Shown: one piece after another, positions 21,401-49,712 of the stretch
How positions within the stretch are numbered: the stretch's first letter is position 1
Layout of the letters: every line of letters starts with the position of its first letter
Made by a program: the position numbers and the translations under genes
Origin: an uncultured Planctomycetota bacterium
GTDB lineage: Bacteria > Planctomycetota > Planctomycetia > Pirellulales > Lacipirellulaceae
DNA length: 64,000 bases
Direction: 5' to 3'
Assembly: GCA_963719315.1 (NCBI GenBank)
Contig: CAVRBU010000005.1
Location: 96,001 to 160,000 of the forward strand
Notes under the pieces: model-generated
Seen by the model: only the letters and a program-made list of their open reading frames with translations
The model's database searches: none
What the model was told of the DNA's origin: nothing

Positions 21401-21466
21401 GGTTCGGGGTTCAGGGTTCGGGGTTCAAGTCGCCGGCTTTCAGATCTGAACTTGAGTACCGAACAC
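21401..21466. repeat. heptamer inverted-repeat hairpin (GGTTCRG family)
   Basis: ggttcgg ggttcag ggttcgg ggttcaa ... ctgaac ... ccgaacac. Confidence 0.7.
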
Positions 21467-22093
21467 TTATCGCGAGCAAAGCTCAACGATCAATTGCGTC
21501 TGTACGGGAATGGATACATCGTCGGCGGCGGGCAGTCGGCCGACGACGCCTTCCGGAATCTGGGCGTCGTTGCGGGACAAAAAATCGGGGATGTCGCGGC
21601 CGCCTTCGGACAATGCACCGCGGACCAGATCGAGGCTTTTGGCGCGATTCTTAACTCGAATCAGGTCGCCGATGCGGACCTGGTAACTCGGGATATCGAC
21701 GCGTCCGCCGTTGACGGTAATGTGGCCGTGGCGAATCATCTGCCGGGCCTGAGCCCGACTTTGACCGAAGCCCAACCGATGCACGACGTTATCCAGACGG
21801 CGTTCGAGCAACACCATGAGCGCGTCGCCAGTGTTGCCCTTGCCCTTCACGGCCTCGTGAAAATACTTGCGAAATTGTCGTTCCAAGACACCGTAATAGT
21901 GCTTCACCTTTTGCTTTTCGCGGAGGTGAGTGCCGTAATCGGTGAGCTTGCCGCGGCGGGTTTGATGCATGCCGGGCGGGTTTTCACGACGCTCGATCGC
22001 GCACTTCGGCGTATCGCAACGCGTGCCCTTCAAAAACAGCTTCATGCCGTCGCGGCGGCAGAGGCGACAGACGGGTCCGGTATATCGTGCCAT
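21467..22093 (-). CDS. rpsD: 30S ribosomal protein S4
   Basis: MARYTGPVCRLCRR, ERRLDNVV, ARQMIRHGH. Confidence 0.97.
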   Translation of the reverse strand: MARYTGPVCRLCRRDGMKLFLKGTRCDTPKCAIERRENPPGMHQTRRGKLTDYGTHLREKQKVKHYYGVLERQFRKYFHEAVKGKGNTGDALMVLLERRLDNVVHRLGFGQSRAQARQMIRHGHITVNGGRVDIPSYQVRIGDLIRVKNRAKSLDLVRGALSEGGRDIPDFLSRNDAQIPEGVVGRLPAADDVSIPVQTQLIVELCSR

Positions 22094-22097
22094 GAAT

Positions 22098-22181
22098 GGG
22101 TTCAGGGTCAGGGGTCAGGGGTCTGATTAAGTGCTCGGGCTCGGGTGCAAGGCTCTTCGCTGAACCCTGAACCCTAAACCC
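22098..22181. repeat. heptamer inverted-repeat hairpin (GGGTCAG / CTGAACC)
   Basis: gggttca gggtcag gggtcag gggtc ... ctgaacc ctgaacc ctaaacc. Confidence 0.8.
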
Positions 22182-22183
22182 AC

Positions 22184-22597
22184 TTACACGCGGCGTTTCT
22201 TGCGGGGACGGCAACCGTTGTGCGGCAACGGCGTGATGTCTTCAATGGATTTGACTTTCAAGCCGGCGGCTTCGAGCGCGGTGATCGCGCTTTCGCGGCC
22301 GCTGCCGGGGCCTTTCACCTTGACTTCAACTTCCTTGACGCCGTATTTCTTGGCCTTGTCGGCCGCTTGCTGGGCCGCCATCTGGCCGGCGAAGGGCGTG
22401 CTCTTGCGGCTGCCTTTGAAGCCGCTCGTGCCGGCGCTGGCCCAGCACAGCGTATCGCCCTTGGTGTCGGTGATCGTGACGGTCGTGTTGTTGAACGTCG
22501 CTTGGATAAAAGCGACGCCCACCGACACGTTGCGACGCGCTTTCTTCTTGGCTGCCTTCGTGCTGGTTGCGGCGGGAGCCGCTGCTTCTTTCGACAT
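22184..22597 (-). CDS. rpsK: 30S ribosomal protein S11
   Basis: [31 protein letters not shown]. Confidence 0.97.
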
Positions 22598-22679
22598 GAT
22601 AGTGGAAGTAATCTCAGTTTTCGTTCTAGCTAAGCCGCCAGCGGCGAAATGTGCCGTGCCCGCTCAGCGGTAATCGTTT

Positions 22680-23063
22680 TTAGCGGAGGTCTTTGACGCC
22701 CTTCTTGCCGGCGACGGTTTTCTTGGGGCCCTTGCGGGTGCGAGCGTTGGTGCGCGTGCGCTGGCCGCGAACCGGAAGCCCGCGACGATGGCGCACGCCC
22801 CGGTAGCAAGTAATATCCTTGAGCCGCGTAATATCCTGATTGACTTTCCGGCGGAGCTGGCCTTCGACGGTGTAATCCTTATCCAGCAGCGCGGCGATCC
22901 GCGCCACTTCGTCTTCGCCCAACTCGCGGGCGTGGGCCTGCGGGTTGACGCCCGCTTTGTGGCACAACTCGCGAGCCGTCTTCGTGCCGACGCCGTATAA
23001 GTACGTCAGCGAGATGGCGGTTGGGCGGTCGGGCGGGATATCAACACCTAACAGACGCGGCAT
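22680..23063 (-). CDS. rpsM: 30S ribosomal protein S13
   Basis: LTYLYGVG, RHRRGLPVRGQRTRTNARTRKG. Confidence 0.97.
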   Translation of the reverse strand: MPRLLGVDIPPDRPTAISLTYLYGVGTKTARELCHKAGVNPQAHARELGEDEVARIAALLDKDYTVEGQLRRKVNQDITRLKDITCYRGVRHRRGLPVRGQRTRTNARTRKGPKKTVAGKKGVKDLR

Positions 23064-23162
23064 GGTTTGCTCCGGTTCTTACTGCATTCGATACGTTTTG
23101 GTGCGCACTTCGTCGCACGACGCGGCTAAACGGACGGGGTCCGCAGTATCACACGATGGACG

Positions 23163-23276
23163 TCAACCTTGCCGCTGTTTGTGGCGGGGGTTGCTACACA
23201 CGACATAGACGACGCCACGACGGCGCACGACCTTACACTTATCACAAATTCGCTTGACGCTGGCTTTGACTTTCAT
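23163..23276 (-). CDS. rpmJ: 50S ribosomal protein L36 (Zn-binding form; below ORF-track cutoff)
   Basis: Manual translation [37 protein letters not shown]. Confidence 0.95.
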
Positions 23277-23462
23277 CGATCCACCCGAATTTGGGCCCAG
23301 GGGCGGCCCGCAAACGGCCGTGTCCGCAGATGGCGGTAAACGCTTGAATATACGCCCTGCACACCGCCCAGTTCAAGGGCTGAATTTTCAGAGTTTCTAA
23401 ATCGCGGCAGGGACCGTTTGTCGGCCAGTTTTGCAGGGGTTGGGCGCCGACCACCCTGCGCA

Positions 23463-24323
23463 CTAGCTTCCCGACGACACGGGGTTGGCGGCCGAATCCA
23501 TACCGGCAAAATCCCAGGGCAAGTTAGCCAATTCGTCGGACGATGGGGCGTCCGTCAGTAACGTGGGGCCGTCTTTTGTAATCGCAATCGTGTGTTCGAA
23601 ATGGGCGCTCGGCTTGCGGTCGAGCGTCGATTGAGTCCAATGGTCGCGATGCATCTTCACGCGTTTGGTCCCCATGTTGACCATCGGCTCGACGGCAATC
23701 ACCAGGCCGGGCTCCAGCCGGAAGTCGCCGCTGCCGCGCAGCGAGCGGCTCAGGAAGTTCGGCACCTGCGGCTCTTCGTGCATTTGGCGGCCAATACCGT
23801 GGCCGACGAAACATTCGACAGTTGAAAACCCGTGGTCGCGAACGAATTGGGCCATCTCCCGGGCGACTTGGCTCCAGCGGCTCTTGGTGTGAATTAACTC
23901 GTACGCCAGGTCGAGCGTGCCTTTGGTGACATCGAGCAAGCGCTGCACCGCAGGACTGATTCGGCCGGCGGCATAAGTAACGGCGGCGTCGCCGCACCAC
24001 CCGTTGACGCGGCAACCCGTATCGACGCTCACGATATCGCCTTCTGCCAGAGTCCGATGCGTGGGTATGCCATGAACGACCTCATCGTTGATGCTCGTGC
24101 AGGTTGCGGCAGGGAATACTGGCCGACCTTGATTCTGATGCGGGTAGTCCTTGAACAGCGGCTCGGCGCCGCAGTGGCGAAAATGCTCGGTGATGACGGC
24201 GTCGATCTCGGCCGTCGTGACGCCGGGCGCGACGATCTGCGCCACCAGTTGATGAGCTTGCCAGACACAGATGCCTGCTTGGCGCATCAAGGCGATTTCA
24301 CGTTCCGATTTGAGTTGAATCAC
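23463..24323 (-). CDS. map: methionine aminopeptidase type I
   Basis: SINDEVVHGIP, GHGIG, HEEP, EPMVN, SAHFEHT. Confidence 0.95.
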   Translation of the reverse strand: MIQLKSEREIALMRQAGICVWQAHQLVAQIVAPGVTTAEIDAVITEHFRHCGAEPLFKDYPHQNQGRPVFPAATCTSINDEVVHGIPTHRTLAEGDIVSVDTGCRVNGWCGDAAVTYAAGRISPAVQRLLDVTKGTLDLAYELIHTKSRWSQVAREMAQFVRDHGFSTVECFVGHGIGRQMHEEPQVPNFLSRSLRGSGDFRLEPGLVIAVEPMVNMGTKRVKMHRDHWTQSTLDRKPSAHFEHTIAITKDGPTLLTDAPSSDELANLPWDFAGMDSAANPVSSGS

Positions 24324-24391
24324 AGCGAGCGAATGTGGTTAGAGCCGATATGTTCCGTAATTTTATCAGAAGCGGGCCCGGCTGGCGAATC

Positions 24392-24952
24392 TCAACCTGC
24401 GGCCGCATCCACGGCCGCACGTATTTTTGCAAACACCTCGTCGGGCGTCCCTTCGGCGGCGATATGTCGCAACACGCCGCGACGACGGTAATGATCCAGC
24501 AGCGGCTCCGTCAGGAGATTGTATTGCCGAAATCGCTCCCGAATGGTTTCCCGATCGTCGTCCGGCCGGCCGCGAGAGAGCAACCGCTCCACCAGCAGCG
24601 GCTCGGAGACATCCAGTGCCAGCACGAGTTCGAGCGGCATGTGGCGCTCCTCCAGGAGCCGATCGAGAGTTTCGGCCTGGGGCACCGTGCGGGGAAAGCC
24701 ATCGAACAGACAACCGCGCGAGCAATCCTTGTCGCCCAGGCGCTCGACGACAATGCCGACCACCACATTGTCCGGCACCAACTGGCCGGCCTTCATGTAA
24801 CTCGCGAACTCGAGCCCTAGCGGAGTACCGGCTTGAGCGGCGTCGCGCAGCATCTCGCCCGTGGAGAGATGCGCGACATTCAAATAGTCCTTCAGCCGTT
24901 GGGCCTGCGTCCCCTTTCCCGCGCCGGGTGGACCAAGGAAGACGATGCGCAT
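24392..24952 (-). CDS. adk: adenylate kinase (short LID)
   Basis: GPPGAGKGTQA, HLSTGEMLR, DGFPRT, GRPDD. Confidence 0.95.
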   Translation of the reverse strand: MRIVFLGPPGAGKGTQAQRLKDYLNVAHLSTGEMLRDAAQAGTPLGLEFASYMKAGQLVPDNVVVGIVVERLGDKDCSRGCLFDGFPRTVPQAETLDRLLEERHMPLELVLALDVSEPLLVERLLSRGRPDDDRETIRERFRQYNLLTEPLLDHYRRRGVLRHIAAEGTPDEVFAKIRAAVDAAAG

Positions 24953-24965
24953 GGTGTGGGGAAAC

Positions 24966-25025
24966 TGTCGGGTGTCGGATGTCAGGTATCGGATTTCAGC
25001 GTCTGACACCTGAAACCTGACACCT
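24966..25025. repeat. heptamer inverted-repeat hairpin (TGTCRGR / CTGACAC)
   Basis: tgtcggg tgtcgga tgtcagg tatcgga ... ctgacac ctgaaac ctgacac. Confidence 0.8.
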
Positions 25026-25062
25026 CGCTTACTCATGCAGCCAGGATGAACGCATACCGTGG

Positions 25063-26424
25063 CTATTCCTCCAACAGCCCCGAGTAGTTGCGCATCACGA
25101 GGTGACTATCGATTTTCTGGACCAGGTCGAAGGCCACGCTGACTGCAATCAACAGACTCGTGCCGCCGTAGAAGCTGGCGATCACGGGCTCAACGTCCAG
25201 CGAATTGGAAATCAGCGTCGGAATGATTGCGACAATGGCCAGGAAGCCGGCGCCCACGTAGGTTATGCGGACCATCACCTTTTCCAGGTAATCGGCCGTG
25301 CGTTTGCCGGGGCGATAGCCGGGAATGAATGAACCGAAGTTTTTCAGGTTATCCGCCATATCCTTCGGATTGAATGTAATCGCGGTCCAGAAGTAACAGA
25401 AGAAATAGATCAGGACCAGATAAAAAATGTTGTAGATGTAACCGTGATCGCGGCCGAAGACGCCGGCCAGCCAACTTATCGTGCTATGCCACCAGCCTTC
25501 GCTCCTGGAAGCGCGCTCCAGATTCGTGAAGATGATCATTGGGAACATCAACAGGCTGCTGGCGAAGATGATCGGCATGACGCCGGCCTGGTTGACCTTG
25601 AGCGGCATGTAGTTCTTCGTACCGCCGAAAACGCGACGGCCGCGAACGTGCTTGGCACTTTGCATCGTAATGCGGCGCTGCCCAAGCGTGATAAACACCA
25701 CGCCAGTAACGACCGCCACGAACATGGCGGCCAACACAATCAGTCCTTCGATGCCGAGCTTTCCGCGCGTGCCGCTCACCTCGAAGGACGCCTTTTGGAG
25801 CAACTGATATCCGGCATAGGGCATGCGGGCTAGGATCCCGGCCATAATCAACAGGCTGATGCCGTTGCCAATGCCGAACTCATCGATTTGCTCTCCGAGC
25901 CACATCAGGAAAATAGTGCCGGCGGTCATGGTCAGAATAGTCGTGATTTTCCAGCCAAACATGATGCCGCCGGCCGAGTTCTGGAACGGCTCAGCGACGA
26001 GCCCTTGGGCCTCGACATACGACGAAAGGTAGAACCAACTTTGCACAATGCATAAAAAGAAGGTGGCATAGCGCGTGTATTCATTGATCTTCTTGCGACC
26101 TGCCTCACCTTCCTTTTGCAGTTGCTCGAGGGGCGGATAAACGCTGCCCAGAAGTTGGAAAATGATCGAGGCCGAGATATACGGCATGATGCCCAGGCCG
26201 AAGATCGTCACATCGCGCAAGCGGCTAGCACTGAACGTGGCGACGGTCTCCAGCATGTCGGCGATGCCGCCATGCTGCTTGCTCAAGGAACTCACCTTGG
26301 CGTGATCGAGGATGGGCACCTCGATTTGGAAGCCGACGCGGTAGATGGCGAGCATCAAGAGCGTCAGCCCGATCTTGGTGCGGAGTTCTGGAATCTTCCA
26401 GATGACGGAGATTTTTTGCCACAT
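25063..26424 (-). CDS. secY: preprotein translocase SecY
   Basis: LGIMPYISASII, GIGNGISL, NQAGVMPIIFA, FIPGYRPG. Confidence 0.97.
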   Translation of the reverse strand: MWQKISVIWKIPELRTKIGLTLLMLAIYRVGFQIEVPILDHAKVSSLSKQHGGIADMLETVATFSASRLRDVTIFGLGIMPYISASIIFQLLGSVYPPLEQLQKEGEAGRKKINEYTRYATFFLCIVQSWFYLSSYVEAQGLVAEPFQNSAGGIMFGWKITTILTMTAGTIFLMWLGEQIDEFGIGNGISLLIMAGILARMPYAGYQLLQKASFEVSGTRGKLGIEGLIVLAAMFVAVVTGVVFITLGQRRITMQSAKHVRGRRVFGGTKNYMPLKVNQAGVMPIIFASSLLMFPMIIFTNLERASRSEGWWHSTISWLAGVFGRDHGYIYNIFYLVLIYFFCYFWTAITFNPKDMADNLKNFGSFIPGYRPGKRTADYLEKVMVRITYVGAGFLAIVAIIPTLISNSLDVEPVIASFYGGTSLLIAVSVAFDLVQKIDSHLVMRNYSGLLEE

Positions 26425-26475
26425 CGTGTGTACCCGTCCTTGGCGTTAGCATGTCGCCATTATGGGCTGAATTGC

Positions 26476-26505
26476 CGCTTGTGTCTTAGCGCTAAACCGC
26501 AAGCG
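26476..26505. repeat. REP-like palindrome (GCTAANCCGCAAGCG family)
   Basis: cgcttgtgtcttagc-gctaaaccgcaagcg; related copies at 20357-20371 and 22629-22643. Confidence 0.55.
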
Positions 26506-26539
26506 ATAGCCTTGGCTGATCATTGATCTGCAAGTTGGA

Positions 26540-27049
26540 CTACGTTCGCGCCGATTGCTTCTTTTTCCTGTCGACTGCACCTAACTTGACGACCGGTGCC
26601 TTGCCCGGGAGCACGATCGCTTCTCCGCCGGCGGCGGTAATTTTTTCGGTTGCGGTCTTGCTGAATCGGTGTGCGGAAATCTTGAGTTTCTTGGTGACTT
26701 CGCCGTTGCCGAGGATTTTCAGTTCGTCGCATACGCCTTTCGCCAAGTTGAGCGCGGCGAGCGACTCGGGCGTAACGTGGTCGCCCGACTTGTACAAATT
26801 GTTCAGATCGCCAAGATTGACGACCGCCACCGTTTTGGCCCAACGGTTGTTGAAGCCGCGTTTCGGAATGCGGCGCACCAGCGGGCTGGCGCCGCCTTGA
26901 AACACGGCCAGGAACGACACACCGTTGTGGGACCACTGGCCCTTGTGCCCGCGGCTGGCCGTTTTGCCGTGGCCGGAACCGATGCCGCGGCCGAGTCGCT
27001 TGCGCGGCTTGGCGGTGTGTACATCGCGATGAATGTCGTTGAGGTTCAT
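26540..27049 (-). CDS. rplO: 50S ribosomal protein L15
   Basis: [35 protein letters not shown]. Confidence 0.97.
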
Positions 27050-27612
27050 GATGTTAACGGGACCCCTCGTAAGCGTTCGACGTCGGTTTTGGGCCGCAAC
27101 TGCTTGAGGGCGGCAAACGTGGCCTTCACGAGCGAAACTGGGTTATTCGAGCCGAAGCTCTTGGTGAGGATGTCGTGGATGCCGGCCGCTTCGCATACCG
27201 CTCGCACGGCCGAACCAGCGATAACGCCCGCACCGGGCGACGCGGGAAGCAAGATCACGTGGGCGGCGCCGTAGCGGCCTTCGACGACGTGCGAAATCGA
27301 TTTGCGATCGAGCGTGACGGTCACCAGGCTGCGCATGCCTTCCTTGCGGGCCTTCTCGACGCTGGGCGGCACTTCGTTCGCTTTGCCGTAGCCCCAGCCG
27401 ACTTTACCCTTGCCGTCGCCGACGACGACCATCGCCGCAAAGCTGAAGCGTCGGCCACCCTTCACGACGGCGGCGCAACGCTTGATCTTGACGATGCTCT
27501 CCGAGAGTTCGCCTTCGACACGTTCACTGCGATCGCTGCGATCGCCACGGTCGCTGCGGCCGCGCGAGCCGCGTTGGCCACGTTCGGTTCGTTCGCTGGT
27601 ACCAGCCGACAT
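27046..27612 (-). CDS. rpsE: 30S ribosomal protein S5
   Basis: [26 protein letters not shown]. Confidence 0.97.
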
Positions 27613-27624
27613 AAAGTAGCCTCT

Positions 27625-27993
27625 CTAAAAACTCAATCCGCCTTCGCGCGCCGCGTTGGCCAATGCGGCCACGCGACCGTGATAGCGGTACGGCCCCCGG
27701 TCGAAACAGACGGCCTTGATGCCGGCCGCAATGGCCCGCTCGGCAATTGCCTTGCCGACGGCCTGCGCGGCATCGGCGTTGCCACCCGACTTCAATTTAC
27801 CGGACAACTGCTTATCCTGCGACGACGCGGCGGCCAATGTTTTACCGCTCAAGTCGTCGATGACTTGGACCGAAATGTGCTTGTGACTGCGGATTACGCT
27901 CAACCGCGGCCGCTCGACCGTGCCGCGCACATGCTTGCGAACGCGAAAGGCTCGCCGCTGACGAAGTTGCCGTAATTGCTTGGAGTGTTCCAT
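27625..27993 (-). CDS. rplR: 50S ribosomal protein L18
   Basis: [27 protein letters not shown]. Confidence 0.97.
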
Positions 27994-28003
27994 GATAGTG
28001 GGG

Positions 28004-28079
28004 GGGTCGAGGGTCGAGGGTCGAGGGTCGAGGGTCAGCAATGATCTGGCCCTCGACCCTAAACCCTCCACCCTAGACC
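28004..28079. repeat. heptamer inverted-repeat hairpin (GGGTCGA / CCCTCGA)
   Basis: (gggtcga)x4 gggtcag ... ccctcga ccctaaa ccctcca ccctaga. Confidence 0.85.
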
Positions 28080-28080
28080 A

Positions 28081-28624
28081 CTAAGTTGCTGTCTTGCCGG
28101 CCTTGCGGCGGACTTGCTCTCCGTCGTACCGAATGCCTTTGCCTTTGTACGGTTCAGGCTTGCGCACGGCCCGCACTTCGGCGGCAAACTGGCCGACCTT
28201 TTGCTTGTCGGTGCCCTTGATCAGGATATGGGTTTGATCGGGGCAGGTTACGGTCAGACCCTTGGGGATCTTCTTGTGAACTTCGTTCGCGAATCCGACG
28301 CGCAGTTGCAGCGTGTCGCCCGCGACGGCGCCGAGGTAGCCCACGCCTTGGATTTCAAGCTTCTTTTCGTAGCCTTCAGTGACCCCGACCAGCATGTTGT
28401 TGATCAGAGCACGGGTCAGGCCGTGGTAGGCGCGGATTTCGCGGTCTTCCGACTGCGCGGGTGCAGACGACGCTCTTGCCGTCGCCTTCGATCTGCACGC
28501 CGATTTCGGGCCGATGGGTGTACTCGAGCTTGCCGAGCTTCCCTTCGACGGTGATCGCGCGGCCGGCGACGTTCACTTTGGCACCACTGGGCACGGTAAT
28601 CGGTTTTTTGCCTATGCGGGACAT
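28081..28624 (-). CDS. rplF: 50S ribosomal protein L6 (1-nt frameshift near 28457)
   Basis: MSRIGKKPI...VVCTR joins QSEDREIRAYHGLTRALINNM...PEPYKGKGIRY. Confidence 0.95.
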
Positions 28625-28627
28625 GTT

Positions 28628-28705
28628 TTAGCCTTCAGCCATCAGCTTTCAGCCAACCATCATCCGTCCTTCTTGCTTACGGCTGATGGCTGACGGCTAA
28701 TAGCC
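28628..28705. repeat. heptamer inverted-repeat hairpin (TCAGCCW / CTGAYGG)
   Basis: ttagcct tcagcca tcagctt tcagcca ... ctgatgg ctgacgg ctaatag. Confidence 0.85.
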
Positions 28706-28711
28706 ATTACT

Positions 28712-29113
28712 TTACCAAACTTCACAAAGCACTTCGCCACCGAGGTTTCGTTGCCGGGCTTCGCGGTCGCTGATCACGCCGCGGCTGGTGCTGATGATCG
28801 ATATTCCCAAACCGTTGAGCACCGGGCGTAAGCGATCGGCCGGGCTGTACACGCGACGGCCCGGTTTGCTGACGCGACGGATGTGACGAATCACGCGCTC
28901 GCCGTTCGGGCCGTACTTGAGATCGATCGCCAATTGCTTTCTCGGGGCGCCTTCTTCTTGCCCTTCGCTCCAATCCCAAATATAGCCTTCCCGCTTGAGC
29001 ACCTCAGCGAGCCCGCGCTTCACTTTGGAAAGCGGCATCTCGACACGGGGGCACTCAATTCGCACGGCGTTGCGAATGCAAGTGAGCATATCGGCGATCG
29101 GGTCGGTCATCAT
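28712..29113 (-). CDS. rpsH: 30S ribosomal protein S8
   Basis: DPIADML, RVSKPGRRVY, ISTSRGV, GGEVLC. Confidence 0.97.
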   Translation of the reverse strand: MMTDPIADMLTCIRNAVRIECPRVEMPLSKVKRGLAEVLKREGYIWDWSEGQEEGAPRKQLAIDLKYGPNGERVIRHIRRVSKPGRRVYSPADRLRPVLNGLGISIISTSRGVISDREARQRNLGGEVLCEVW

Positions 29114-29117
29114 AAGT

Positions 29118-29203
29118 GGGTGAGGGTCTAGGGTTCAGGGTTGAGGGTTCTACATTCGACGGTCGAAGGTCGCACTCAACCCTCAACCATCGACACTAAA
29201 CCT
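29118..29203. repeat. heptamer inverted-repeat hairpin (GGGTTGA / CTCAACC)
   Basis: gggtcta gggttca gggttga gggttc ... ctcaacc ctcaacc atcgaca ctaaacc. Confidence 0.8.
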
Positions 29204-29208
29204 TCTAA

Positions 29209-29394
29209 TTACCAACTCGCGTTTCGTACTCCGGGAATCAAGCCTTGATCCGCCAACTTGCGGAAGCAGATTCGACAGATGCCGAATTTTTGATACACGG
29301 CCCGCGGCCGGCCGCACAAGCGGCAACGGTTTTCGCGGCGCGTACTAAATTTCGGCTCACTTTTCGCTTTGGCGATTTTTGATTTGCTGGCCAC
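29209..29394 (-). CDS. rpsN: 30S ribosomal protein S14 (short Zn-binding type Z)
   Basis: 61 aa; RCRLCGRPR...ICRICFR. Confidence 0.95.
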
Positions 29395-29414
29395 CGAAGT
29401 TCGTGTCCTTTTAA

Positions 29415-29506
29415 AGCGGTTAGCTATTAGCGGTTAGCTATTAGCCAGTCGGGTTATTCGTTTTCTCTCTGGCTGATAGCAGCTAAAGTGCTAACAGCTA
29501 ATAGCC
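29415..29506. repeat. heptamer inverted-repeat hairpin (TTAGCTA / CTAAYAG)
   Basis: ttagcta ttagcgg ttagcta ttagcca ... ctgatag ... ctaacag ctaatag. Confidence 0.85.
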
Positions 29507-29509
29507 ACC

Positions 29510-30653: not shown

Positions 30654-30654
30654 C

Positions 30655-31423: not shown

Positions 31424-31430
31424 TTTTTAT

Positions 31431-31501
31431 AGCTCTTAGCGGTTAGCTATTAGCGGTTAGCCAAACAATTGTAAGCTTCCTCTGGCTAACAGCTAATGGC
31501 T
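31431..31501. repeat. heptamer inverted-repeat hairpin (TTAGCGG/TTAGCTA family)
   Basis: ttagcgg ttagcta ttagcgg ttagcca ... tgg ctaacag ctaatgg ct. Confidence 0.85.
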
Positions 31502-31506
31502 TCTTC

Positions 31507-33560: not shown

Positions 33561-33566
33561 GTTTCA

Positions 33567-33656
33567 TTAGCTGTTAGCTGTTAGCTGTTAGCTGTTAGCC
33601 AGAATCAAGACCGATGCCTTTTCTGGCTAACAGCTAAAAGCTAAGAGCTAAGAGCT
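33567..33656. repeat. heptamer inverted-repeat hairpin (TTAGCTG / CTAANAG)
   Basis: (ttagctg)x4 ttagccaga ... tctgg ctaacag ctaaaag ctaagag ctaagag. Confidence 0.9.
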
Positions 33657-33670
33657 TATCTCCTACTTAC

Positions 33671-35633: not shown

Positions 35634-35651
35634 GTTACGTTTTGGGAGGCC

Positions 35652-35713
35652 TTTAGCGTCGTCGGCAGCGCCGAATTTGTTCGTTGCAGTCCGGCATTAT
35701 CGCCGACGCTAAA
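35652..35713. repeat. REP-doublet-like inverted repeat (TTTAGCGYCG family)
   Basis: tttagcgtcgtcggcagcgccgaa ... tccggcattatcgccgacgctaaa. Confidence 0.7.
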
Positions 35714-35716
35714 CTC

Positions 35717-36406: not shown

Positions 36407-36500
36407 CGGAGTGTACCTTTGGTCATTTGCCCCGCGGGAGACACGCGATCTAATCTCGCGCCTTACCCGCTTGGCATCCGGTCATGTCTTCGCTTTTGTT

Positions 36501-36551
36501 TGTCAGTCGTCAGTGGTCCGTGGCTGATTTGCAACGGACAACGGACTACGA
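36501..36551. repeat. heptamer inverted-repeat hairpin (TCMGTGG / CAACGGA)
   Basis: tcagtcg tcagtgg tccgtgg ... caacgga caacgga ctacga. Confidence 0.7.
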
Positions 36552-36554
36552 TCC

Positions 36555-41456: not shown

Positions 41457-41801
41457 AGGTTGGCCCAGAGAGTCCAATTTTCCGTGGCTACAAACGGCTC
41501 GGCTGTCGCCACACTGACCTCCACTCCGGCAGGGATGGATGCCAGCGGGAGCAGTGGAGCGACTATTGTTTGTTTCGTTGCGGGACGACTTCTATGCTGG
41601 GAAAGCCGCCCAAAGGTGAAAAAAACGGGCGGCCCACCAGAAAAAATCCCTGAAACTATCGCCGATTAGGTTGACTTTTTGTCCCACCCGGATTAGGCTC
41701 GCTTTTGGAACCGGTGAGGGGGCAATCGGTAAGTAGGTGCCGGCACCGTCGGCGCTCCGAGTTTCTTCTCTTCAGGCCCGTGGCCAAAGGAGTCGCTAAT
41801 C

Positions 41802-42530
41802 ATGTACACCCCATACAGGCGGATCGCGTCGTGCGTAGCCGCGCTGGTCGCTGCCGTGGTATTCGCTGGCCCCGCAGGAGCACAAATGTCGGGAGTGCCT
41901 GCCGGCGTCGGCAACGACCCGCCCGAAGGCCCATTTGTGTTCGACAATGGTATGGCGATGGTAATGAGCCCAACGGGCGGTCCCATTCCCATCACGATCG
42001 ATCCAAACGCTCCGCCGTGGATCAAGACTTTTCAAATCCCGCCCGGCACGACGATTATTCCCGGCCAGACCTTTCCAGTCTGGGAAAAGTTGTTGATTAT
42101 TCCACCGCCGCCCACCAGCGGCCCGCCGTTGCCACTAACAGATTGGCACGAGCACATTCACGGTTCGAATCCGCCCGGTTTGCCGTTTGGCTGGGCAGGT
42201 GGAACCTTGGCTGTTCACAATCCGACAGATCCCGATGGGCTTCCACCACTAGTGCAAGTCCCCGGCATGGTCGATCCAACGGACCCAACTGGTATTTGGT
42301 TTGACATATCTCACTTCCCACCGATACCGATTCCGCCCAACGGCCTGCCGGTTTGGATCCACAAGGAGTTGGTTTACAACGGCGCCGTGGTGCTAACACC
42401 AAGCACAGCCCCGCTCAGTATTGTCGTCTGGGAGCACCCGACCACCACGCCGGAACCCAGCTCGATCGTGTTGGCTGGTCTCGGCGGCTTGGCGTTGCTG
42501 GCCAGGCGACGGCGGCTGGCTCAAAAGTAA
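41802..42530 (+). CDS. Pro-rich PEP-CTERM exoprotein
   Basis: Signal peptide; TPEPSSIVLAGLGGLALLARRRR. Confidence 0.88.
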   Translation: MYTPYRRIASCVAALVAAVVFAGPAGAQMSGVPAGVGNDPPEGPFVFDNGMAMVMSPTGGPIPITIDPNAPPWIKTFQIPPGTTIIPGQTFPVWEKLLIIPPPPTSGPPLPLTDWHEHIHGSNPPGLPFGWAGGTLAVHNPTDPDGLPPLVQVPGMVDPTDPTGIWFDISHFPPIPIPPNGLPVWIHKELVYNGAVVLTPSTAPLSIVVWEHPTTTPEPSSIVLAGLGGLALLARRRRLAQK

Positions 42531-42711
42531 GTCGCGAATCAACTGCTTTGCGCCAGGTTGTGCGCTTTTGTGCTGACCGTCTGCGCGGTGGATGGGAGCG
42601 GACTTCGCTCCCATTCGCCGTCGGCTGGCATGGATTGCCCTACCATCTCGCAAAGCCGCCTCATAGCGGTGATTCGCCACGGCAGCTCATCGCACTGACT
42701 CCCGCCGGGCA

Positions 42712-43143
42712 TCATTCGATTCTTCCGAGTACGAGAGATAACAACAGCAGGCACAGCACGCCGGCCGTGATGAGCGTGTACACTCGATCGCCCTGATAGA
42801 TAAAGGCGAAGATCGAGACCGCCACGCGTACGACGGGTGTCGCGATTAGCACCAACAGGCCCAGCGTGACGATCGCTTCGCCCCGCAGGTCGCGCAAGCC
42901 GCCGGCCAGCGCGTGGAGCGCATGAGGAAACGGGCTATTTGGCGCCGTCAGTCGTTCAAGCTCGGCGGATTGTGAGAAGTAGGCCGGGTGTTGGACGAAC
43001 GTGATGATCGTCCCCAGGACGATCAGCGATAAGCTGGCGATCACGCCGCCGCGCAGCAAATTGCTGATCAAGAGTTCGACACGGCGAACGCGCGGGTCTA
43101 GCTCGGCGTCGTACGGCGGCAATTTGTTGGCCTGGCTCATCAT
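42712..43143 (-). CDS. DUF1634-like membrane protein
   Basis: ISNLLRGGV, LGLLVLIATPVVRV; usual TSUP partner. Confidence 0.8.
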   Translation of the reverse strand: MMSQANKLPPYDAELDPRVRRVELLISNLLRGGVIASLSLIVLGTIITFVQHPAYFSQSAELERLTAPNSPFPHALHALAGGLRDLRGEAIVTLGLLVLIATPVVRVAVSIFAFIYQGDRVYTLITAGVLCLLLLSLVLGRIE

Positions 43144-43986
43144 CCGCGGATTCCCTTCCACAGCATTTGCGCCGATACAAGCAGCAAAACCGCTACGAAC
43201 ACGATCCGGACCGTCGAGCTTTGCAGTTTGGGCAGCAGCCGCGAACCGCCGACCGCCCCCAACAACACCCCGACCGCCACGGGCGCCGCGATAAACGGAT
43301 CGATTTCGCCGCGCATGAAATAAACTCCGGCGCATAGCGGCCGCCGTGACGCCAATCATGAAATTGCTCGTGGCGGTCGAGACCTTGATCGGCATGTGCA
43401 TCGCCAAATCCATCGCCGGTACCTTCAATGCACCGGAGCCAATGCCCAGCAGCCCACTAATCGCGCCTGCGACGTACATCAACGCCAATCCGATCCGCGT
43501 GCTCACCACGCGATAGACGATTTCCCGGCCCAGACGCTCGTCGTAGTAGCTGCCATGAAGCCGCAAGTAATCGGCCCACGGCGCCGGTTTGGCAACCACC
43601 CGCTCGAATTCAGGATCTCGAAGTTTGCGAATCATCACCAGCGAGGAGTACCCCAGCACCACGCCGAAGATGATGTACAGCCAGCGGGCATTCAGCAGCC
43701 CGGCCAGATATGCGCCCGTGAGGGCGCCGGACGTTGTCGCCAACTCCAGCACCATGGCGACGCGCATGTTCGTGAGCCGATCGCGAACGTAGGATGCCGC
43801 CGCGCCGCTGGAGGTCGCAATCACGGACACGATCGACGCCCCGATTGCGTAGCGAATGTCGATGTGAAACAGCAGCGTGAGGGCGGGGATCACGATCACG
43901 CCGCCGCCCAGGCCGAGCAGCGAACCCAGAGCGCCGGCCGCAATGGAAATCACAAACGCCAGGACAGCGAATTCAAGGGGAGTCAT
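43140..43986 (-). CDS. TSUP (TauE/SafE) family transporter (frameshift near 43335 fuses it to DUF1634 in the ORF track)
   Basis: GSLLGLGGG, SGLLGIGSG, TATSNFMIGVTAA; C-terminus in 43140-43355 frame. Confidence 0.85.
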
Positions 43987-44075
43987 CGCGCGACAGGCTC
44001 AGTTGTGGCCGCATCACGGACAGTATTCCCATCAGATCTAGCGGCCGAGCGAAGCGTAATCTAGGACTTCCCAGA

Positions 44076-45488
44076 CTACAAGCCGCGTCGATGGCCGCCG
44101 GCGGGACGGCGGCGGCGCTGGATTCGTTTCGCGGGCCTACCACCACCGCCAGTCGTAGCGGATGCGTATTCACGCGCCGGGCCGCGTGGTTTGGATGCGG
44201 CGCCGCGTGACGGTCGTGCGCCCGCTCGCGGCCCGTTGGATCTCGCCCTGCCTTGATACGGTTGATCGTGTTGGCCGCCAGCCTCGCGTTTGTAGACGGG
44301 CTGGTCCTGTTCGACGTGAATTGTCTGGCGCGTGAGGCGTTCGATTTGTCGAAGTTGATCGCGCTCGTGGCGGCCACAGAACGATGTGGCGATTCCGGTC
44401 GCGCCGGCTCGACCCGTGCGGCCGATGCGGTGGACGTAAATCTCAGCCACCTCGGGCAATTCGTAGTTAATCACGTGCGAGATGCCCTGCACGTCCAAGC
44501 CACGGGCGGCGATGTCGGTCGCCACCAGCACCGGCGGGCGGTTCGATTTGAACGCATCCAGTGTGCGTTGCCGCACGCTTTGGCTCTTGTTGCCGTGGAT
44601 GGCCGCGGCGCGAATGCCGGAGCGGTCCAGGTGCTTCACGATCTTGTCGGCCCCGTGCTTCGTGCGGGCGAATACGAGCGTGCGGGTGAAGGCCGTGTTC
44701 TGCAGAAAGTGTACCAGCAATTGAGGCTTGTTCTGTTGCTCGACGAAGTACACCGAATGCTCCACCAACTCCGCCGGCGTGGCGACGGGGGCCACTTGAA
44801 TATGCGTCGGATCGTTGAGCCACTCGCTGGCCAGCTTGCGAATTTCCGGCGGCATCGTGGCCGAGAACATCAGCGTTTGACGGTTTTTCGGCACAGTAGC
44901 CACGATTTTCCGCAACGGCACGATGAAGCCCATGTCCAGCATCTGGTCGGCTTCGTCGAGAATCAGAATCTCGACGTTCCGCAGATTGATGTGGCCCTGC
45001 TCCATCAGGTCGAGCAGCCGGCCGGGCGTGGCCACGAGCACGTCGACACCGTTCTGCAAGGCCTTGACCTGCGAACCCTGCCCGACGCCGCCGTACACCA
45101 CGGTGTAACGCAGGCCGGTGAATTGGCCGTAGGTCTTGAAGCTTTGCCCGATCTGCACGGCCAGTTCGCGCGTGGGCGCGAGGATCAGCGAACGAATTGG
45201 TCGTCGATCGGCCCGCGGATACGAATCGCGAGACTTGCCGTTTGTTTTGTTTTTCGGCACCGAGCCGTTGGCAAGCGCCGGACTGACGCTGGTGCTCAAA
45301 CGATGCAGCGTGGGCAGCGCGAACGCGGCTGTTTTGCCGGTGCCGGTTTGGGCGCAACCCATCAGGTCGCACCCGGCGAGCACGGGCGGAATCGCCTGCA
45401 GTTGGATCGGCGTCGCCGTGTGATAGCCCTCGGCGCGAACGGCGCGAAGCAGCGAGTCGGCGAGGCCCAGTTGATCAAAAGTTTCCAC
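44076..45488 (-). CDS. DEAD-box RNA helicase (RhlE-like)
   Basis: AQTGTGKT, PTRELA, TPGR, DEAD, SAT, ARGLD, HRIGRTGRAG. Confidence 0.95.
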   Translation of the reverse strand: METFDQLGLADSLLRAVRAEGYHTATPIQLQAIPPVLAGCDLMGCAQTGTGKTAAFALPTLHRLSTSVSPALANGSVPKNKTNGKSRDSYPRADRRPIRSLILAPTRELAVQIGQSFKTYGQFTGLRYTVVYGGVGQGSQVKALQNGVDVLVATPGRLLDLMEQGHINLRNVEILILDEADQMLDMGFIVPLRKIVATVPKNRQTLMFSATMPPEIRKLASEWLNDPTHIQVAPVATPAELVEHSVYFVEQQNKPQLLVHFLQNTAFTRTLVFARTKHGADKIVKHLDRSGIRAAAIHGNKSQSVRQRTLDAFKSNRPPVLVATDIAARGLDVQGISHVINYELPEVAEIYVHRIGRTGRAGATGIATSFCGRHERDQLRQIERLTRQTIHVEQDQPVYKREAGGQHDQPYQGRARSNGPRAGARPSRGAASKPRGPAREYASATTGGGGRPAKRIQRRRRPAGGHRRGL

Positions 45489-45854
45489 AGATTGTACTTT
45501 CTTCCCTCACAGGGAACTTGTCTTGCTTGCGACGCAGACCTAGCGCGGAGCGGAAGTATCGTCGCAATGCTGATTACGAAAAAGGCTCGACCGCTGAACA
45601 TCAGCAGGAACCCAGAGGAGCAAGAGAATCAGTCGCGGTCGTAAGCAAGAGATACCGGGGCGTTGTATTGGAGGCCCCGATGGCCGCTGCAATCGAATTC
45701 GAATGAACCTGGCTCGGCAAGTTGCCAACGCCGGTCTCGCACCTAAGTTGTTATTCCAAGGATAGCACAAACGGGGGGCCGGTCAAGAGCGATTCGGCCT
45801 GCCAGCAGGTAAAGTACCACAATTCCGCTCGATTTGTGGAGGATATGCGCGGAG

Positions 45855-46463
45855 TCATGGAAAAGCGCTGCACTTGCACTCCCACTCAAGCTTTTCTGCC
45901 AGCACCATTTGAGTCACTTCGTCCCATGTGTTGGCCCGCGGGTCGGGCAGGTGCTCATTCGTGGAGTTCGTGAAGACGATCGTTTTGGCCCCTTCGGCCC
46001 GCAACCGCTCGACGTTCGTCGGCGAATCTTCGACGTACAGGTCGGCGCCGACCGCCGTTTTTTCTTGCATGAAACACAAGTCCCAATAGGGAATATCGTG
46101 CCGGTCGAGCCACTGGATCGTCTGACTGACCGCAATCTGGTGGAAGTATTTGATGAACAATCGATGCGTGATGATGCGGATTCGCACGCCGGATTTCGAC
46201 AGCTTACGCAGCGCCTGCGGCGCTCGGGCGGTCGGCGGAAGCTTCAGGAAAAGCTCTCGCTGCATCACGGCGAATTTGTGGAGTGCGTCGTAGCCGCCCG
46301 GCGCTTGATCGACTCCCCACTCCGCGAGCCCCCACGATACGCGCTCGGGCAGCGAGTCGAGCGCAACACCCAACCACTCGGCCGCAATCGGCCGTAGGCC
46401 GCCATAAAAATCAGCGACGACGCCGTCGAGGTCGACGCCAAAAACGAAGGAACTATCTGCCAT
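45855..46463 (-). CDS. HAD-superfamily 5'(3')-nucleotidase-like protein
   Basis: [22 protein letters not shown]. Confidence 0.8.
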
Positions 46464-46470
46464 GTCATGA

Positions 46471-46550
46471 AGGATACAGGATGCAGGATGCGGGGGCAGG
46501 GATGGCGTTCCATTGCCTTGCCCCTGCCTCCCGCATCCTCAATCCTCAAT
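46471..46550. repeat. heptamer inverted-repeat hairpin (AGGATGC / CCTSMAT)
   Basis: aggatac aggatgc aggatgc ggggg ... cctgcct cccgcat cctcaat cctcaat. Confidence 0.75.
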
Positions 46551-48680
46551 TACGACTCTCCCAAAAACTTCTGCAACACATCTTCCGGCGCCGGCGCGTA
46601 CGTGCTCGGTTCCATCGAGCAACTGGCCCGGCCTTGGCTGAGCGAGCGCATTGCGCTGGAGTAGCCGAACAAGTTGGCGAGCGGCGCCTCGGCATGCAGC
46701 ACGGTAGCCGTGCCGCGCGATTCGGTGCTGTGGATAATTGCGCGGCGCTGTTGCAAATCGCCCACGAGGTCGCCGACGTGCTCGTCCGGCGTGCTGATTT
46801 CGAGCTTCATAATGGGCTCGAGCAGCACCGGCCCAGCGGCCCGCAGCGCTTGATCGAAAGCGTGGTTCGTGGCGGTGTGGAAGGCAATTTCGGACGGGCC
46901 GTTCTCGCCTACCTCGCCGCCAAGTACGGTCACTTTCAGCCGCATCAACGGGAAACCCAGCAGGCCGCCACCCTGCCCTGAGCTTTCCAGTTCTTCGAGC
47001 ACGACGGTGAGCATGTCGCTCGGCAGACCATGCTGCGGCGAATTTGTCACCGTGACCGGCCCAAGGCCCTTTTCGAACGGTTCGACTCGCACTCGCACTT
47101 TTGCCGCGTGATTCGTGCCCTGAATCATACGGCTGCATTCGCCGACCGCCTCGGCCGACCGCGCAACGGTTTCGCGATAGCTCACCCGAGGTTTGTGAAC
47201 CTTCACATTCAGGCGATAATCGCGCTGCAATTTGTGCTGCACGATTTCCAGGTGCAACTCGCCCATGCCGCTGATGAGCGTTTGGCCCGTTTCGGGATTT
47301 TCTTCAGCGCGGAATGTGGGGTCCTGCTTGCGAAGCATGGTCAACGTCTCGGCCAGCTTCTTGCGGTCCTCCGTGCTCTCGGCTTCGATCGCCATCGAGA
47401 TGACCGTTTCCGGAAAATCGATCGACGCCAACAGAATCGGTTCGCGTGTGTCGCACAGTGTGTCGCCCGTGATCGAATCACGCAGGCCGATGACGCCGAC
47501 GATGTCGCCCGCGCGGGCTGAATCGAGCTGCTCGTCCTTCTTGCTGGCGTGAATTCGCCAGAGCTGGGCAACGTTCTCCTTCTTATCGCGCGTCGAATTC
47601 AATACGCGCGAATTCGGGTCCAAAGTGCCGGAGTAGACGCGCACCCATGAAAGGTCACCCGTTTTGTAGGGCTGAATCTTGAAGACGAGCCCGCAAAACG
47701 GCTCGGTGGGATCTGGCTTGCGGCGAATCGTGTTTGTTTGCTCGCCGCCACATTCGGCCGCCTTTCCTTTCCCCTTGTGCTTATGCTGCAAGTCCACGCC
47801 CTCGACCGGCGGAACATCGGTCGGGTTCGGCAGGTACGCCGCCACCGCATCGAGAATCGGCGCCACCCCCACGCCGTGCAACGCGGAACCGCACAGCACG
47901 GGTTGAATCTGAAGGTGCACCGTCGCCTCGCGGAGAACCTTGTGAATGAGCGATTCCGGAATCGGCTCTTCGGCTAGCGCCAACTCCATCAATTCGTTGC
48001 TGTAATTGTAGAGCGATTCGAGCAACTTCTCACGCCATAGTTGGGCCTCGCTGGCAAGCTCGTCGTCGGGGATCTCGGCCGCGATGATCTTATTGCCTTC
48101 CTTGCCCTCCGGGAAAGTAAGCAGCTTCATTCGCACGAGGTCGATCACGCCGCAAAATGGATTGGCCGTATGGGCAGGCCCCAACCCAACGGGAATTTGC
48201 AGCGCGACCGGATTCGCGTCCAGCCGGCTGCCGATTTCCGTGAACACTGCTTCGAAATCGGCGCCTTCGCGGTCGAGCTTGTTGATGAACGCCAGCCGCG
48301 GCACTTTGTACTTATTGGCCTGCCGCCACACCGTTTCGCTCTGCGCCTCGACACCCTCCCGGGCGCTGAAACACCACCACGCCGCCATCCAGCACGCGCA
48401 GGCTCCGCTCCACCTCGGCCGTGAAATCGACGTGGCCCGGCGTATCGATGAGGTTGATGATGACGTCCTTCCACGGAAACTGCACGCAAGCCGAATAAAT
48501 CGTGATGCCGCGCTCGGCCTCCTCCGGATCGTCATCCGTCGTCGTAGTACCCCGATCCACCTCGCCCGCACGATGCTTAGCACCACTGGCAAAGAGCATC
48601 CGCTCCGTGACCGTGGTCTTCCCGGCATCGATGTGAGCAATGATGCCGATGTTGCGAATTTTTTCGAGAGGGGGAGTCAT
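46550..48680 (-). CDS. fusA: elongation factor G (frameshift near 48370)
   Basis: [23 protein letters not shown] joins [28 protein letters not shown]. Confidence 0.95.
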
Positions 48681-48703
48681 TAGCCTTAAAGCGCAACGCT
48701 CGC

Positions 48704-49022
48704 TTAGGGTTGTTCGTATGTGATCGTTTTTAGATGTGACGTTAGCGGGCTCGGTGCAGGCAAATCAGCTGACCCAAATGGTGTTTCGAGCGGAGCATTG
48801 AGGTCCAAGTAATGAAAGAAAAACGCAAACGTTGTGTGACCTTTTATTTCCAACCTTCTCTCATCATACGCGACTTGCCAATTGGCTTTAGGCTGATTGG
48901 CTATCGCTTGCGCTACTTTTCCAAAATCGAATAGCGTCAGACCCCATTACTTCGATTTCAATTAAATGCACCGGCTCGCTCGCGGCTACCGAATGTACAC
49001 CCAAGACCTTGATCTGCGTCAT
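48704..49022 (-). CDS. AT-rich hypothetical protein of about 105 aa (frameshift near 48930)
   Basis: [10 protein letters not shown]...EPVHLIEI joins FDFGKVAQ...NWQVAYDE...[17 protein letters not shown]...YEQP* (manual translation). Confidence 0.6.
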
Positions 49023-49091
49023 CAAACACCTCACAAGCGTGCGCAAAGCGCGTAAAAAAAGCCGGGGACCAAAGGCTGAGGCTCGTTTGAA

Positions 49092-49124
49092 CCCCAGCCC
49101 CCAGTCCCCAGCCTCCAGTCCCCC
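49092..49124. repeat. single-arm heptamer tandem repeat (CCCCAGY x4-5)
   Basis: ccccagc ccccagt ccccagc ctccagt cccc directly after the rpsG stop. Confidence 0.8.
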
Positions 49125-49126
49125 GA

Positions 49127-49597
49127 CTACCACGCAAAATGCGCGAACGCCTTGTTGGCATCCGCCATGCGATGCACGTTTTCGCGGCGGCTGACGGCCG
49201 CGCCTTCGCGATTGAACGCGGCCACGAACTCATCGGCCAGTTTCTGAGCCGTGGGCCGGCCTTTCTTTTCGCGGATCGCCAACAGCACCCAGCGGATCGC
49301 CAGCGACTGTTGCCGCGTGCGGTTCACCTGCATTGGGACCTGATAGGCGGCGCCACCGACACGCTTGCTGCGGACTTCGATCGAAGGCTTCACGTGCTCC
49401 AGGGCCTGCGTGAAAACCTCGATCGGCTCCTTATCCGGCACGCGCTTCTTCACGATTTCGAGCGCATCATAAAACACGTTCTGCGCAACGCTTTTCTTGC
49501 CGTCGTACATGAGCGTGTTGATGAACTTCGAAGCCAGGAGCGAGCCGTACAACGGATCGGGCTTGAGCTGTTTGCGGCTGGAGGTGATTCTTCCCAT
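49127..49597 (-). CDS. rpsG: 30S ribosomal protein S7
   Basis: [28 protein letters not shown]. Confidence 0.98.
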
Positions 49598-49631
49598 GGA
49601 CTAATTGGCTTATCGATTTTGCTTAAGTTCT

Positions 49632-49712
49632 ATTTGTCATTGCAAATTTGTAATTTGTCATTGGCCATTTCCGAAATGACCAATTTCAAATGACAGCCGA
49701 CCAATGACCAAT
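49632..49712. repeat. heptamer inverted-repeat hairpin (TTTGTCA / AATGACA), gene-less version of the 62060-62543 element
   Basis: Two 40-nt arms separated by 1 nt; left arm 37-38/40 identical to the arms at 62060 and 62504. Confidence 0.9.

Follow-up and report, generated by a model that had tools for sequence, protein, structure and literature searches.

What fills the spacers of the translation operons in this stretch of DNA, where tandem 7-mers face each other as the arms of hairpins and the repeated unit changes from one spacer to the next? We addressed this question in a window of 64,000 nucleotides (positions 96,001 to 160,000 of contig CAVRBU010000005.1, assembly GCA_963719315.1) from an uncultured Planctomycetota bacterium of the Lacipirellulaceae. 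A first-pass annotation of the window had listed sixteen such hairpins, and had taken them either for footprints of a mobile or cassette system or for a repeated RNA-processing or protein-binding element. Our analysis favors the former: the hairpins are probably the gene-less form of a cassette that resembles the intervening sequences (IVSs) of 23S rRNA genes, carries a gene for a PF05635 four-helix-bundle protein in its loop, and is selfish or near-neutral with a fast turnover.

A gene-bearing form, absent from the first-pass annotation, lies in the window itself, between rpoB and rpoC on the minus strand (62030-62545). Here, two inverted arms of ATTTGTC-type units (62500-62543 and 62057-62101) flank an open reading frame (ORF) of 141 codons (62065-62490), whose product matches PF05635, the '23S rRNA intervening-sequence protein' family (E 1.2e-18), and the structure PDB 2rld (E 4.5e-17). 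All 11 PF05635 matches in the genome are enclosed by inverted tandem arms in this manner, each with a different unit and one with 8-mers. A period-7 array is found at most 185 nt from 10 of the 11 genes, compared with a fraction of 0.057 for random windows lying within 300 nt of an array. Nine intact PF05635 proteins share only 18-27% identity with the window copy, and two of the 11 copies contain an internal stop, a sign of ORF decay. The gene upstream is oriented like the cargo at all 11 copies, and both neighbors are at nine, which fits a promoter-less gene that depends on host transcription.

The sixteen sites are best read as members of one genome-wide population of about 140-170 elements by strict count. 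In the assembly (5.93 Mb, 20 contigs, 90.7% complete), arrays of at least three copies number 507 at period 7, compared with 165 at period 5, 84 at period 6, 37 at period 8 and 25 at period 9. Tandem heptanucleotide arrays thus occur far beyond expectation, as in the repeats known as short tandemly repeated repetitive (STRR) sequences or long simple-sequence repeats (LSSRs). An inverted partner (score at least 12, within 150 nt) accompanies 244 of the 507 period-7 arrays and a direct partner 41. Pairing within 1500 nt joined 268 arrays and left 239 unpaired, giving 172 elements, 142 of which have a loop of at most 100 nt (short elements). An independent scan that started from hairpins found 537 long ones, with period-7 arms in 105, period 8 in 15, period 9 in 11, and periods 4-6, 10 and 11 in at most two each; the genome-wide scan that the first-pass annotation had proposed singles out period 7. 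In each element, three to five G-rich 7-mers make up the 5' arm and the complementary C-rich 7-mers the 3' arm, with about 20 nt of loop between them. Measured on 139 elements, the stem has a median of 28 positions, or four units, and the loop a median of 20 nt; arms of 3-5 units are found in 121 of them. The 142 short elements form 23 unit families at no more than one mismatch, so that the 'about nine families' of the first-pass annotation hold within the window and fall short for the genome. Because the detectors are strict (9 of the 15 hairpins in the window's operons, including str, pass the hairpin test used on relatives), these counts are lower bounds.

The empty and the gene-bearing forms are related by an internal deletion. 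The ATTTGTC-family element at 49632-49695, in the S12-S7 spacer (49598..49716; z -2.4), is an empty counterpart of the rpoB-rpoC cassette: positions 49632-49675 match its left arm at 41 of 44 positions and 49671-49695 its right arm at 24 of 25. The two matches overlap by 5 nt, so that the element equals the cassette minus about 400 nt. In the genome as a whole, 81 of the 142 short elements differ in their unit by at most one mismatch from some gene-bearing copy (null mean 0.157, maximum 0.458 in 1000 draws). The filled versions expected of a mobile or cassette system thus exist, both at the 11 PF05635 genes and, for the hairpin at 49632, within the same window.

The link between arms and cargo extends beyond this phylum. 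We searched one genome per species with three PF05635 proteins as queries and obtained 80 loci, a sample that leans to one protein clade; by record titles, they belong to Planctomycetota, Verrucomicrobiota, Bacteroidota, Gemmatimonadota, Acidobacteriota, Pseudomonadota and Chloroflexota, with Stieleria and Pirellula strains among them. Flanks of 200 nt or more on either side were available for 75 loci, of which 57 have inverted arms (score at least 14) and 7 direct repeats. The best period in the 57 armed loci is 7 in 53, 8 in three and 9 in one. In a set of 53 cassettes, unit distance falls as protein identity rises (Mantel r -0.39, 0/2000 permutations), with units differing at a mean of 1.85 positions in pairs of at least 60% protein identity and at about 3 in pairs below 50%. 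This tie would fit the inheritance of whole cassettes, and possibly also recognition of the arms by the protein.

The arms follow a rule of polarity. The 5' arm has more G than C in 114 of the 142 short elements, more C than G in 4, and is neutral in 24. Since a G-first element stays G-first on reverse complementation, the polarity is independent of the strand that is read, and it is found between co-directional (68:2), divergent (12:2) and convergent genes (5:0) as well as inside ORFs (29:0). Cassettes from other lineages behave alike, with more G than C in the upstream arm of 55 and the opposite in 2 (n=57). We did not find this G-first rule in the literature searched. Of 139 elements, 27 carry a CAGAA-type motif at the inner end of their 5' arm and 2 at its outer end.

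Could the hairpins instead be ordinary LSSRs, grown in place by replication slippage and made palindromic by template switching, into which PF05635 genes merely land? Heptamer LSSRs are over-represented in some bacteria (Mrazek 2007, as summarized in the excerpted text of PMC4679880), and the copy number of the unit varies between arms and between species here. At L14-L24, one species has the same U-A to C-G change in all four units of both arms, which fits homogenization in place. Against slippage, families such as ATTTGTC recur at ten or more places with common non-periodic details and a common orientation, indicating that whole elements are copied. A G-first polarity of 114 to 4 would not be expected of slippage, and neither would a unit that tracks the clade of the cargo protein across phyla with the Mantel correlation given above. 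The GlnRS gene is also difficult to accommodate: a complete GGGTTCA-type hairpin of at least 84 nt is present in our genome and in one other genome of the genus, whereas the same place holds 24 unrelated bases, encoding GGDWEDRL or a similar short loop, in 14 other loci of the genus and in 6 outgroup loci. Taken together, we consider an origin by slippage unlikely.

Next to the IVS-like cassette stands the view that the hairpins serve the host, which can be judged by their distribution among relatives. Using tblastn to locate genes, we compared the S10-spc-alpha region of our genome with nine others of the genus and eight from other families of the order. A period-7 hairpin occupies 18 of 28 operon junctions in at least one of the ten genus genomes, and no junction in all ten. 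At twelve junctions, some genome is filled and another has a spacer shorter than 40 nt, and at least two unit families are present at 12 of the 16 junctions that are filled at least twice. At L14-L24, hairpins of five families stand in eight genus genomes, and the spacer is 5 nt long in two. Within the genus, a single junction can have a spacer of anything between 5 and about 110 nt; in outgroups the value is often -1 (gene overlap). Each genus operon has 1-12 hairpins, and seven of the eight outgroup operon loci have none. Four outgroup genomes that lack a PF05635 match have 0 hairpins despite 11-21 spacers of at least 40 nt, a co-occurrence that is descriptive only, as the relatives are non-independent and the genomes incomplete. 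Hairpins are thus gained, lost and replaced at the same junction within one genus, with the presence, absence and family swaps in orthologous spacers that the first-pass annotation had proposed to look for.

Based on home-made and crude gene calls, the 142 short elements divide into 90 with co-directional, 15 with divergent and 7 with convergent neighbors, and 30 located in called ORFs. In co-directional spacers, the element begins a median of 7.5 nt past the stop codon and ends 14 nt ahead of the start codon. We considered intrinsic terminators and rejected them, given that only 7 of 142 elements are convergent; a 7-T run was noted at one site (after S7), T-runs not having been scanned systematically. 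Genes that flank elements outside the reference operons have a median codon adaptation index of 0.696 versus 0.645 (p 3e-21), or 0.697 versus 0.663 (p 5e-13) when only well-supported genes are counted. This ribosomal-protein-like codon usage fits either high expression or a contrast of core with accessory genes, between which it does not distinguish. The S10-spc-alpha block holds 4 of the 142 elements by the strict detector, at a density about ten times the genome mean; confinement to the translation operons, as claimed in the first-pass annotation, is therefore true inside the window and becomes an enrichment in the genome.

Copies are also found inside genes. Twenty-six of the elements classed as coding are located wholly inside long ORFs and are read through without a stop codon, and in 12 of 18 scanned ORFs there is Pfam-matched sequence on either side of the element in one frame. 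The hosts are GlnRS, PutA, ArgRS, PheRS beta, a UvrA-like protein, IleRS (two elements), Lnt, CarA, an Orn/Lys/Arg decarboxylase, GcvP2, CarB and a lipoyl ligase. The insert in GlnRS amounts to 28 residues. In-frame copies must be translated or precisely removed, and cutting of every stem by RNase III, the gene for which is present in the genome, can therefore not be the rule.

We also looked for marks of selection on the RNA. In L14-L24, four species have hairpins with a similar loop, and the species with the U-A to C-G change in all four units of both arms also has A-U changed to G-U in three units; with n=4 sequences and 22 of 500 shuffles reaching the count, this covariation serves as an example. 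Complementarity holds for 585 of the 832 cells in which a unit position varies in both arms, compared with 405 +/- 13 after unit shuffling, an excess that is overstated because the register had been picked for maximal pairing. When the register is chosen anew for each shuffle, the values are 0.708 versus 0.663 +/- 0.014. Compensatory changes between the arms, which the first-pass annotation had made a test of its reading, are thus present and modest. Among the 90 co-directional elements, sense and antisense strands fold alike (-42.7 vs -43.6 kcal/mol), the more stable strand being the sense in 42 and the antisense in 48, and G-U pairs number 205 in the sense and 232 in the antisense strand. 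The arms are also alike in regularity, with a longer 3' arm in 45 elements and a longer 5' arm in 43. Nothing marks the transcribed strand.

These results bear on the possibility that the hairpins are cis-regulatory RNA structures of the host, kept by selection as processing or stability sites that uncouple ribosomal-protein cistrons and set protein ratios. Such a role would agree with the exact filling of intercistronic spacers, the density in S10-spc-alpha, the codon usage of the neighbors, and stable stems in which variable unit positions pair above chance. It is improbable nonetheless, since no junction is filled in 10/10 genus genomes, 7/8 outgroup operons are empty, and different units occupy the same junction. 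Neither folding energy nor G-U pairs favor the sense strand, and in 12/18 ORFs the element stands in frame with Pfam-matched sequence of a housekeeping enzyme on each side. A search of window positions 20000-64000 against Rfam at gathering thresholds gave 0 matches. The second reading of the first-pass annotation, a conserved RNA-processing or protein-binding element of the host, was not borne out on the same grounds: no conserved junction, no sense-strand advantage, and copies within coding sequence.

The polarity itself requires a cause, and two may apply. A G-rich, Shine-Dalgarno-like arm may be required upstream of the cargo, which only a G-first element would offer on either strand; about half of the unit families, however, are without such a core. 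Alternatively, the arms could be synthesized from the 3' ends of a broken target. A third candidate, the avoidance of exposed C-rich RNA (Rho/rut), is disfavored by the lone arrays: on the sense strand of co-directional spacers, partnerless heptamer arrays are rich in C in 70 cases and rich in G in 32, and the paired elements show no such asymmetry. We also considered a broader scheme in which no arms are carried between sites and each site builds its own. Once transcribed DNA is broken, repeat-adding synthesis would extend both 3' ends with G-rich 7-mers, and the ends would then be joined with or without cargo; the unit would be set by the Avd-like pentameric protein of the cassette itself or by an RNA bound to that protein. 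Synthesis de novo of this kind would account for the G-first polarity seen on both strands (114:4 and 55:2), for the target bases replaced in GlnRS, for an arm size of 3-5 units, for the link of unit to protein clade, and for a single architecture with many sequences. If true, it would supply PF05635, a large family, with its first function and bacterial heptamer repeats with a source, although we hold the scheme itself to be doubtful.

Repetitive extragenic palindromes or bacterial interspersed mosaic elements (REP/BIME), moved by a REP-associated tyrosine transposase (RAYT; Y1, IS200-like) on single-stranded hairpins, are a highly improbable explanation: IS200/IS605 and RAYT enzymes act on DNA hairpins and the genome has 11 Y1_Tnp matches, one of them in the window at 57275-57496, but period-7 arrays are missing from the 300 nt around each of the 11 genes (the closest stands 716 nt away, and one contig is without any array), and a different long, non-heptamer hairpin lies within 273 nt of 8 of the 11, so that this is a separate REP-like system. 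In the window, the Y1_Tnp gene stands just downstream of rpoC and is preceded by a palindrome tagged GTAG...CTAC (57275-57620). A link to reverse transcriptase was rejected as well, as neither of the genome's two reverse transcriptase genes is adjacent to a PF05635 cassette. These two RVT_1 genes (C5:217803-218465 and C18:10790-11452) have identical scores and are probably two copies of one retroelement.

We thus return to the IVS-like cassette and its gene-less form. Such inserts, selfish or near-neutral, would spread at the DNA level and persist where they leave genes unbroken, namely in stop-to-start spacers or in frame in tolerant loops of proteins. The promoter-less cargo would gain from host transcription, and unit slippage together with copying between arms may keep the two arms alike. 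By analogy with published rRNA IVSs, RNA stems of about 28 bp could be substrates of RNase III, although this cutting cannot be obligatory because there are in-frame copies in essential genes. Several observations weigh against the cassette. Families such as GTCCGTN, GGATTGC and AAATTGC, comprising 61 of the 142 short elements, are without a gene-bearing partner in this 90.7%-complete assembly. No PF05635 gene is present in the operon loci of the 17 relatives, which leaves loss of the ORF in place unsupported for the operon hairpins. PF05635 is the sole cargo; the cassette carries no transposase or other known mobility gene, and we know of no demonstrated activity for PF05635, nor is it a known transposase. 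No target-site duplication is visible in comparisons of filled and empty junctions, and in GlnRS the element replaces 24 nt of target, encoding a conserved 8-residue loop, so that simple insertion does not describe it. The like folding of sense and antisense strands counts on the same side.

The individual sites of the window were examined by locating arrays with Tandem Repeats Finder, assigning flanking genes by Pfam, and folding each spacer as RNA of the sense (minus) strand for comparison with 200 dinucleotide shuffles. All 16 sites are spacers between minus-strand genes of the rpoA / alpha-spc-S10 and str operons, which include rpoA, S4, S11, S13, L36, map, adk, secY, L15, S5, L18, L6, S8, S14, L5, L24, L14, S17, L29, L16, S3, L22, S19, L2, L23, L4, L3 and S10, and further on S12, S7 and fusA. 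Period-7 arrays are found at the listed coordinates, mostly as facing pairs whose arms are visible in the raw sequence, and the loops of the 16 sites are 1-35 nt long and free of a PF05635 ORF. Fifteen of the 16 spacers fold better than shuffles, and the long-stem terminal inverted repeats typical of IVSs are thus present. The sixteenth is the S4-rpoA spacer (21383..21466), where the annotated hairpin proved to be a one-sided heptamer array (21401-21427, GGTTCGG/GGTTCAG) with a decayed partner and no stable fold (z 0.09, 101/200 shuffles).

Twelve of the 16 spacers beat all 200 shuffles, with z from -3.35 to -10.05; they are given here with the start of the element and its arms. Among them are L14-L24 (30571..30654; 30571, TTAGCTG), where the hairpin spans the whole spacer from stop codon to ATG (-57.6 kcal/mol, z -10.1), L6-L18 (27997..28080; 28004), with five GGGTCGA units facing an imperfect partner arm (-58.3 kcal/mol, z -8.6), and L2-S19 (33561..33670; 33567), with TTAGCTG arms and an inner GCCAGAA...TTCTGGC (z -8.0). 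TCAGCCN arms are present in S17-L14 (31024..31111; 31030, z -6.7) and S8-L6 (28625..28711; 28628, z -5.4), and TTAGCNN arms in L5-S14 (29412..29509; 29415, z -4.2) and L29-S17 (31424..31506; 31431, z -4.0). L23-L2 (34535..34615; 34540) has GAGGGTC-type arms with an inner GCCAGAATTCTGGC (z -5.4), and S14-S8 (29114..29225; 29118) has GAGGGTT-type arms (z -4.1). The remaining three are the spacer between fusA and an NT5C-type nucleotidase gene (46464..46549; 46471, AGGATGC, z -6.1), L16-L29 (31714..31792; 31724, TAAGGNN, z -3.35), and S11-S4 (22094..22183; 22098), with GGGTCAG / CTGAACC arms (-38.3 kcal/mol, 0/200 shuffles). Folds are weaker at 24966, 36501 and 49632, where 4-5 of 200 shuffles are equally stable. 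The first is the secY-adk spacer (24956..25062), with GGTGTCA-type arms (z -1.97, 5/200), and the second the S10-L3 spacer (36407..36554), with a short GTCCGTN hairpin at about 36501-36550 (z -2.55, 4/200); the third is the empty S12-S7 element described above.

Other features of these operons were also noted. Directly after the S7 stop codon (49085..49126), G-rich heptamers (49092-49123) with an imperfect partner and a 7-T run form a terminator-like array that the first-pass annotation had passed over; it begins the S7-fusA spacer of 447 nt (48680-49126). The unit, CCCCAGC/CCCCAGT, looks like that of cyanobacterial STRR1. The L3-L4 spacer (35634-35716) has a hairpin without 7-mer arms (-26.4 kcal/mol); one genus relative has a similar non-heptamer hairpin at this junction, and other genus species have heptamer arms or a spacer of 7 nt. 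The longest ORFs for adk (24392-25036) and L18 (27625-28071) extend upstream through a hairpin arm; the true starts are likely near 24955 and 27996, and automatic calls would add repeat-encoded residues. The essential genes fusA (46550-48679) and L6 (28081-28624) contain one frame change each, most likely assembly indels in this long-contig metagenome genome. Soil-metagenome contigs over the operon are of low depth and end at the arms.

Heptamer repeats (STRR/LSSR), rRNA intervening sequences and the PF05635 family seem to be one phenomenon, which here has colonized ordinary operons and the reading frames of aminoacyl-tRNA synthetases, UvrA and carbamoyl-phosphate synthase. Any mechanism has to account for its strand-invariant G-first polarity and for the link of the unit to the protein clade. 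In practical terms, the elements inflate spacers, break short-read assemblies, where contigs end at arms, and mislead gene callers; they add peptides to essential proteins, and adk, L18 and other ORFs are over-extended through the arms.

How does this population compare with known systems? Like STRR sequences and heptameric LSSRs, it consists of tandem 7-mers that are mostly intergenic and strongly over-represented. The TAACTGA repeats of Beggiatoaceae are direct, with a single inverted one among 170, and are not linked to PF05635 in the excerpted text of PMC4679880; unlike those sets, more than half of the arrays here are in inverted pairs, obey a polarity rule and are tied to a cargo gene. 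The resemblance to miniature inverted-repeat transposable elements (MITEs) lies in empty copies that outnumber gene-bearing ones, share their ends (81/142, and 41/44 plus 24/25 for the window example) and differ from them by an internal deletion. Unlike MITEs, they have no transposase and no target-site duplication that we could see, they replace target bases, and their arms are built of family-specific tandem units. PF05635 is reported, in the part of PMC10053308 cited here, to resemble Avd of phage BPP-1, an accessory protein of diversity-generating retroelements; unlike Avd genes, all 11 copies here are without a reverse transcriptase beside them. In the open-access literature, with subscription journals outside the search, no paper joins non-rRNA heptamer-armed hairpins to PF05635, and the nearest is a study of the Coxiella burnetii IVS (PMC4990558).

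As described in the available excerpts of that study, the IVS in helix 45 of Coxiella 23S rRNA combines a terminal stem of 28 bp with an S23p ORF, upstream of which stand three or two tandem GACAGAT heptamers, variable in number between strains, and AGAAGA, a Shine-Dalgarno-like motif. According to the same excerpts, it is cut by RNase III in vitro, its ORF is decaying, older proposals of IVS mobility are cited, and ORF-bearing 23S IVSs also occur in Leptospira, Xanthomonas and Brucella. The elements described here differ in that they are located in mRNA spacers and inside ORFs rather than in helix 9, 25 or 45 of 23S rRNA, where IVSs of that kind are inserted; at 2928 nt versus a 2925-position model, the 23S gene of this genome is free of inserts. 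Most copies are also without an ORF (about 140 vs 11), and many unit families coexist in one genome. The two otherwise share a long stem (28 bp in Coxiella, a median of 28 positions here), heptamers of varying copy number in the upstream arm with a Shine-Dalgarno region of the AGAAGA/CAGAAGG type, a PF05635/S23p four-helix-bundle ORF in the loop (here in the rpoB-rpoC cassette and 10 other copies), and decay of that ORF.

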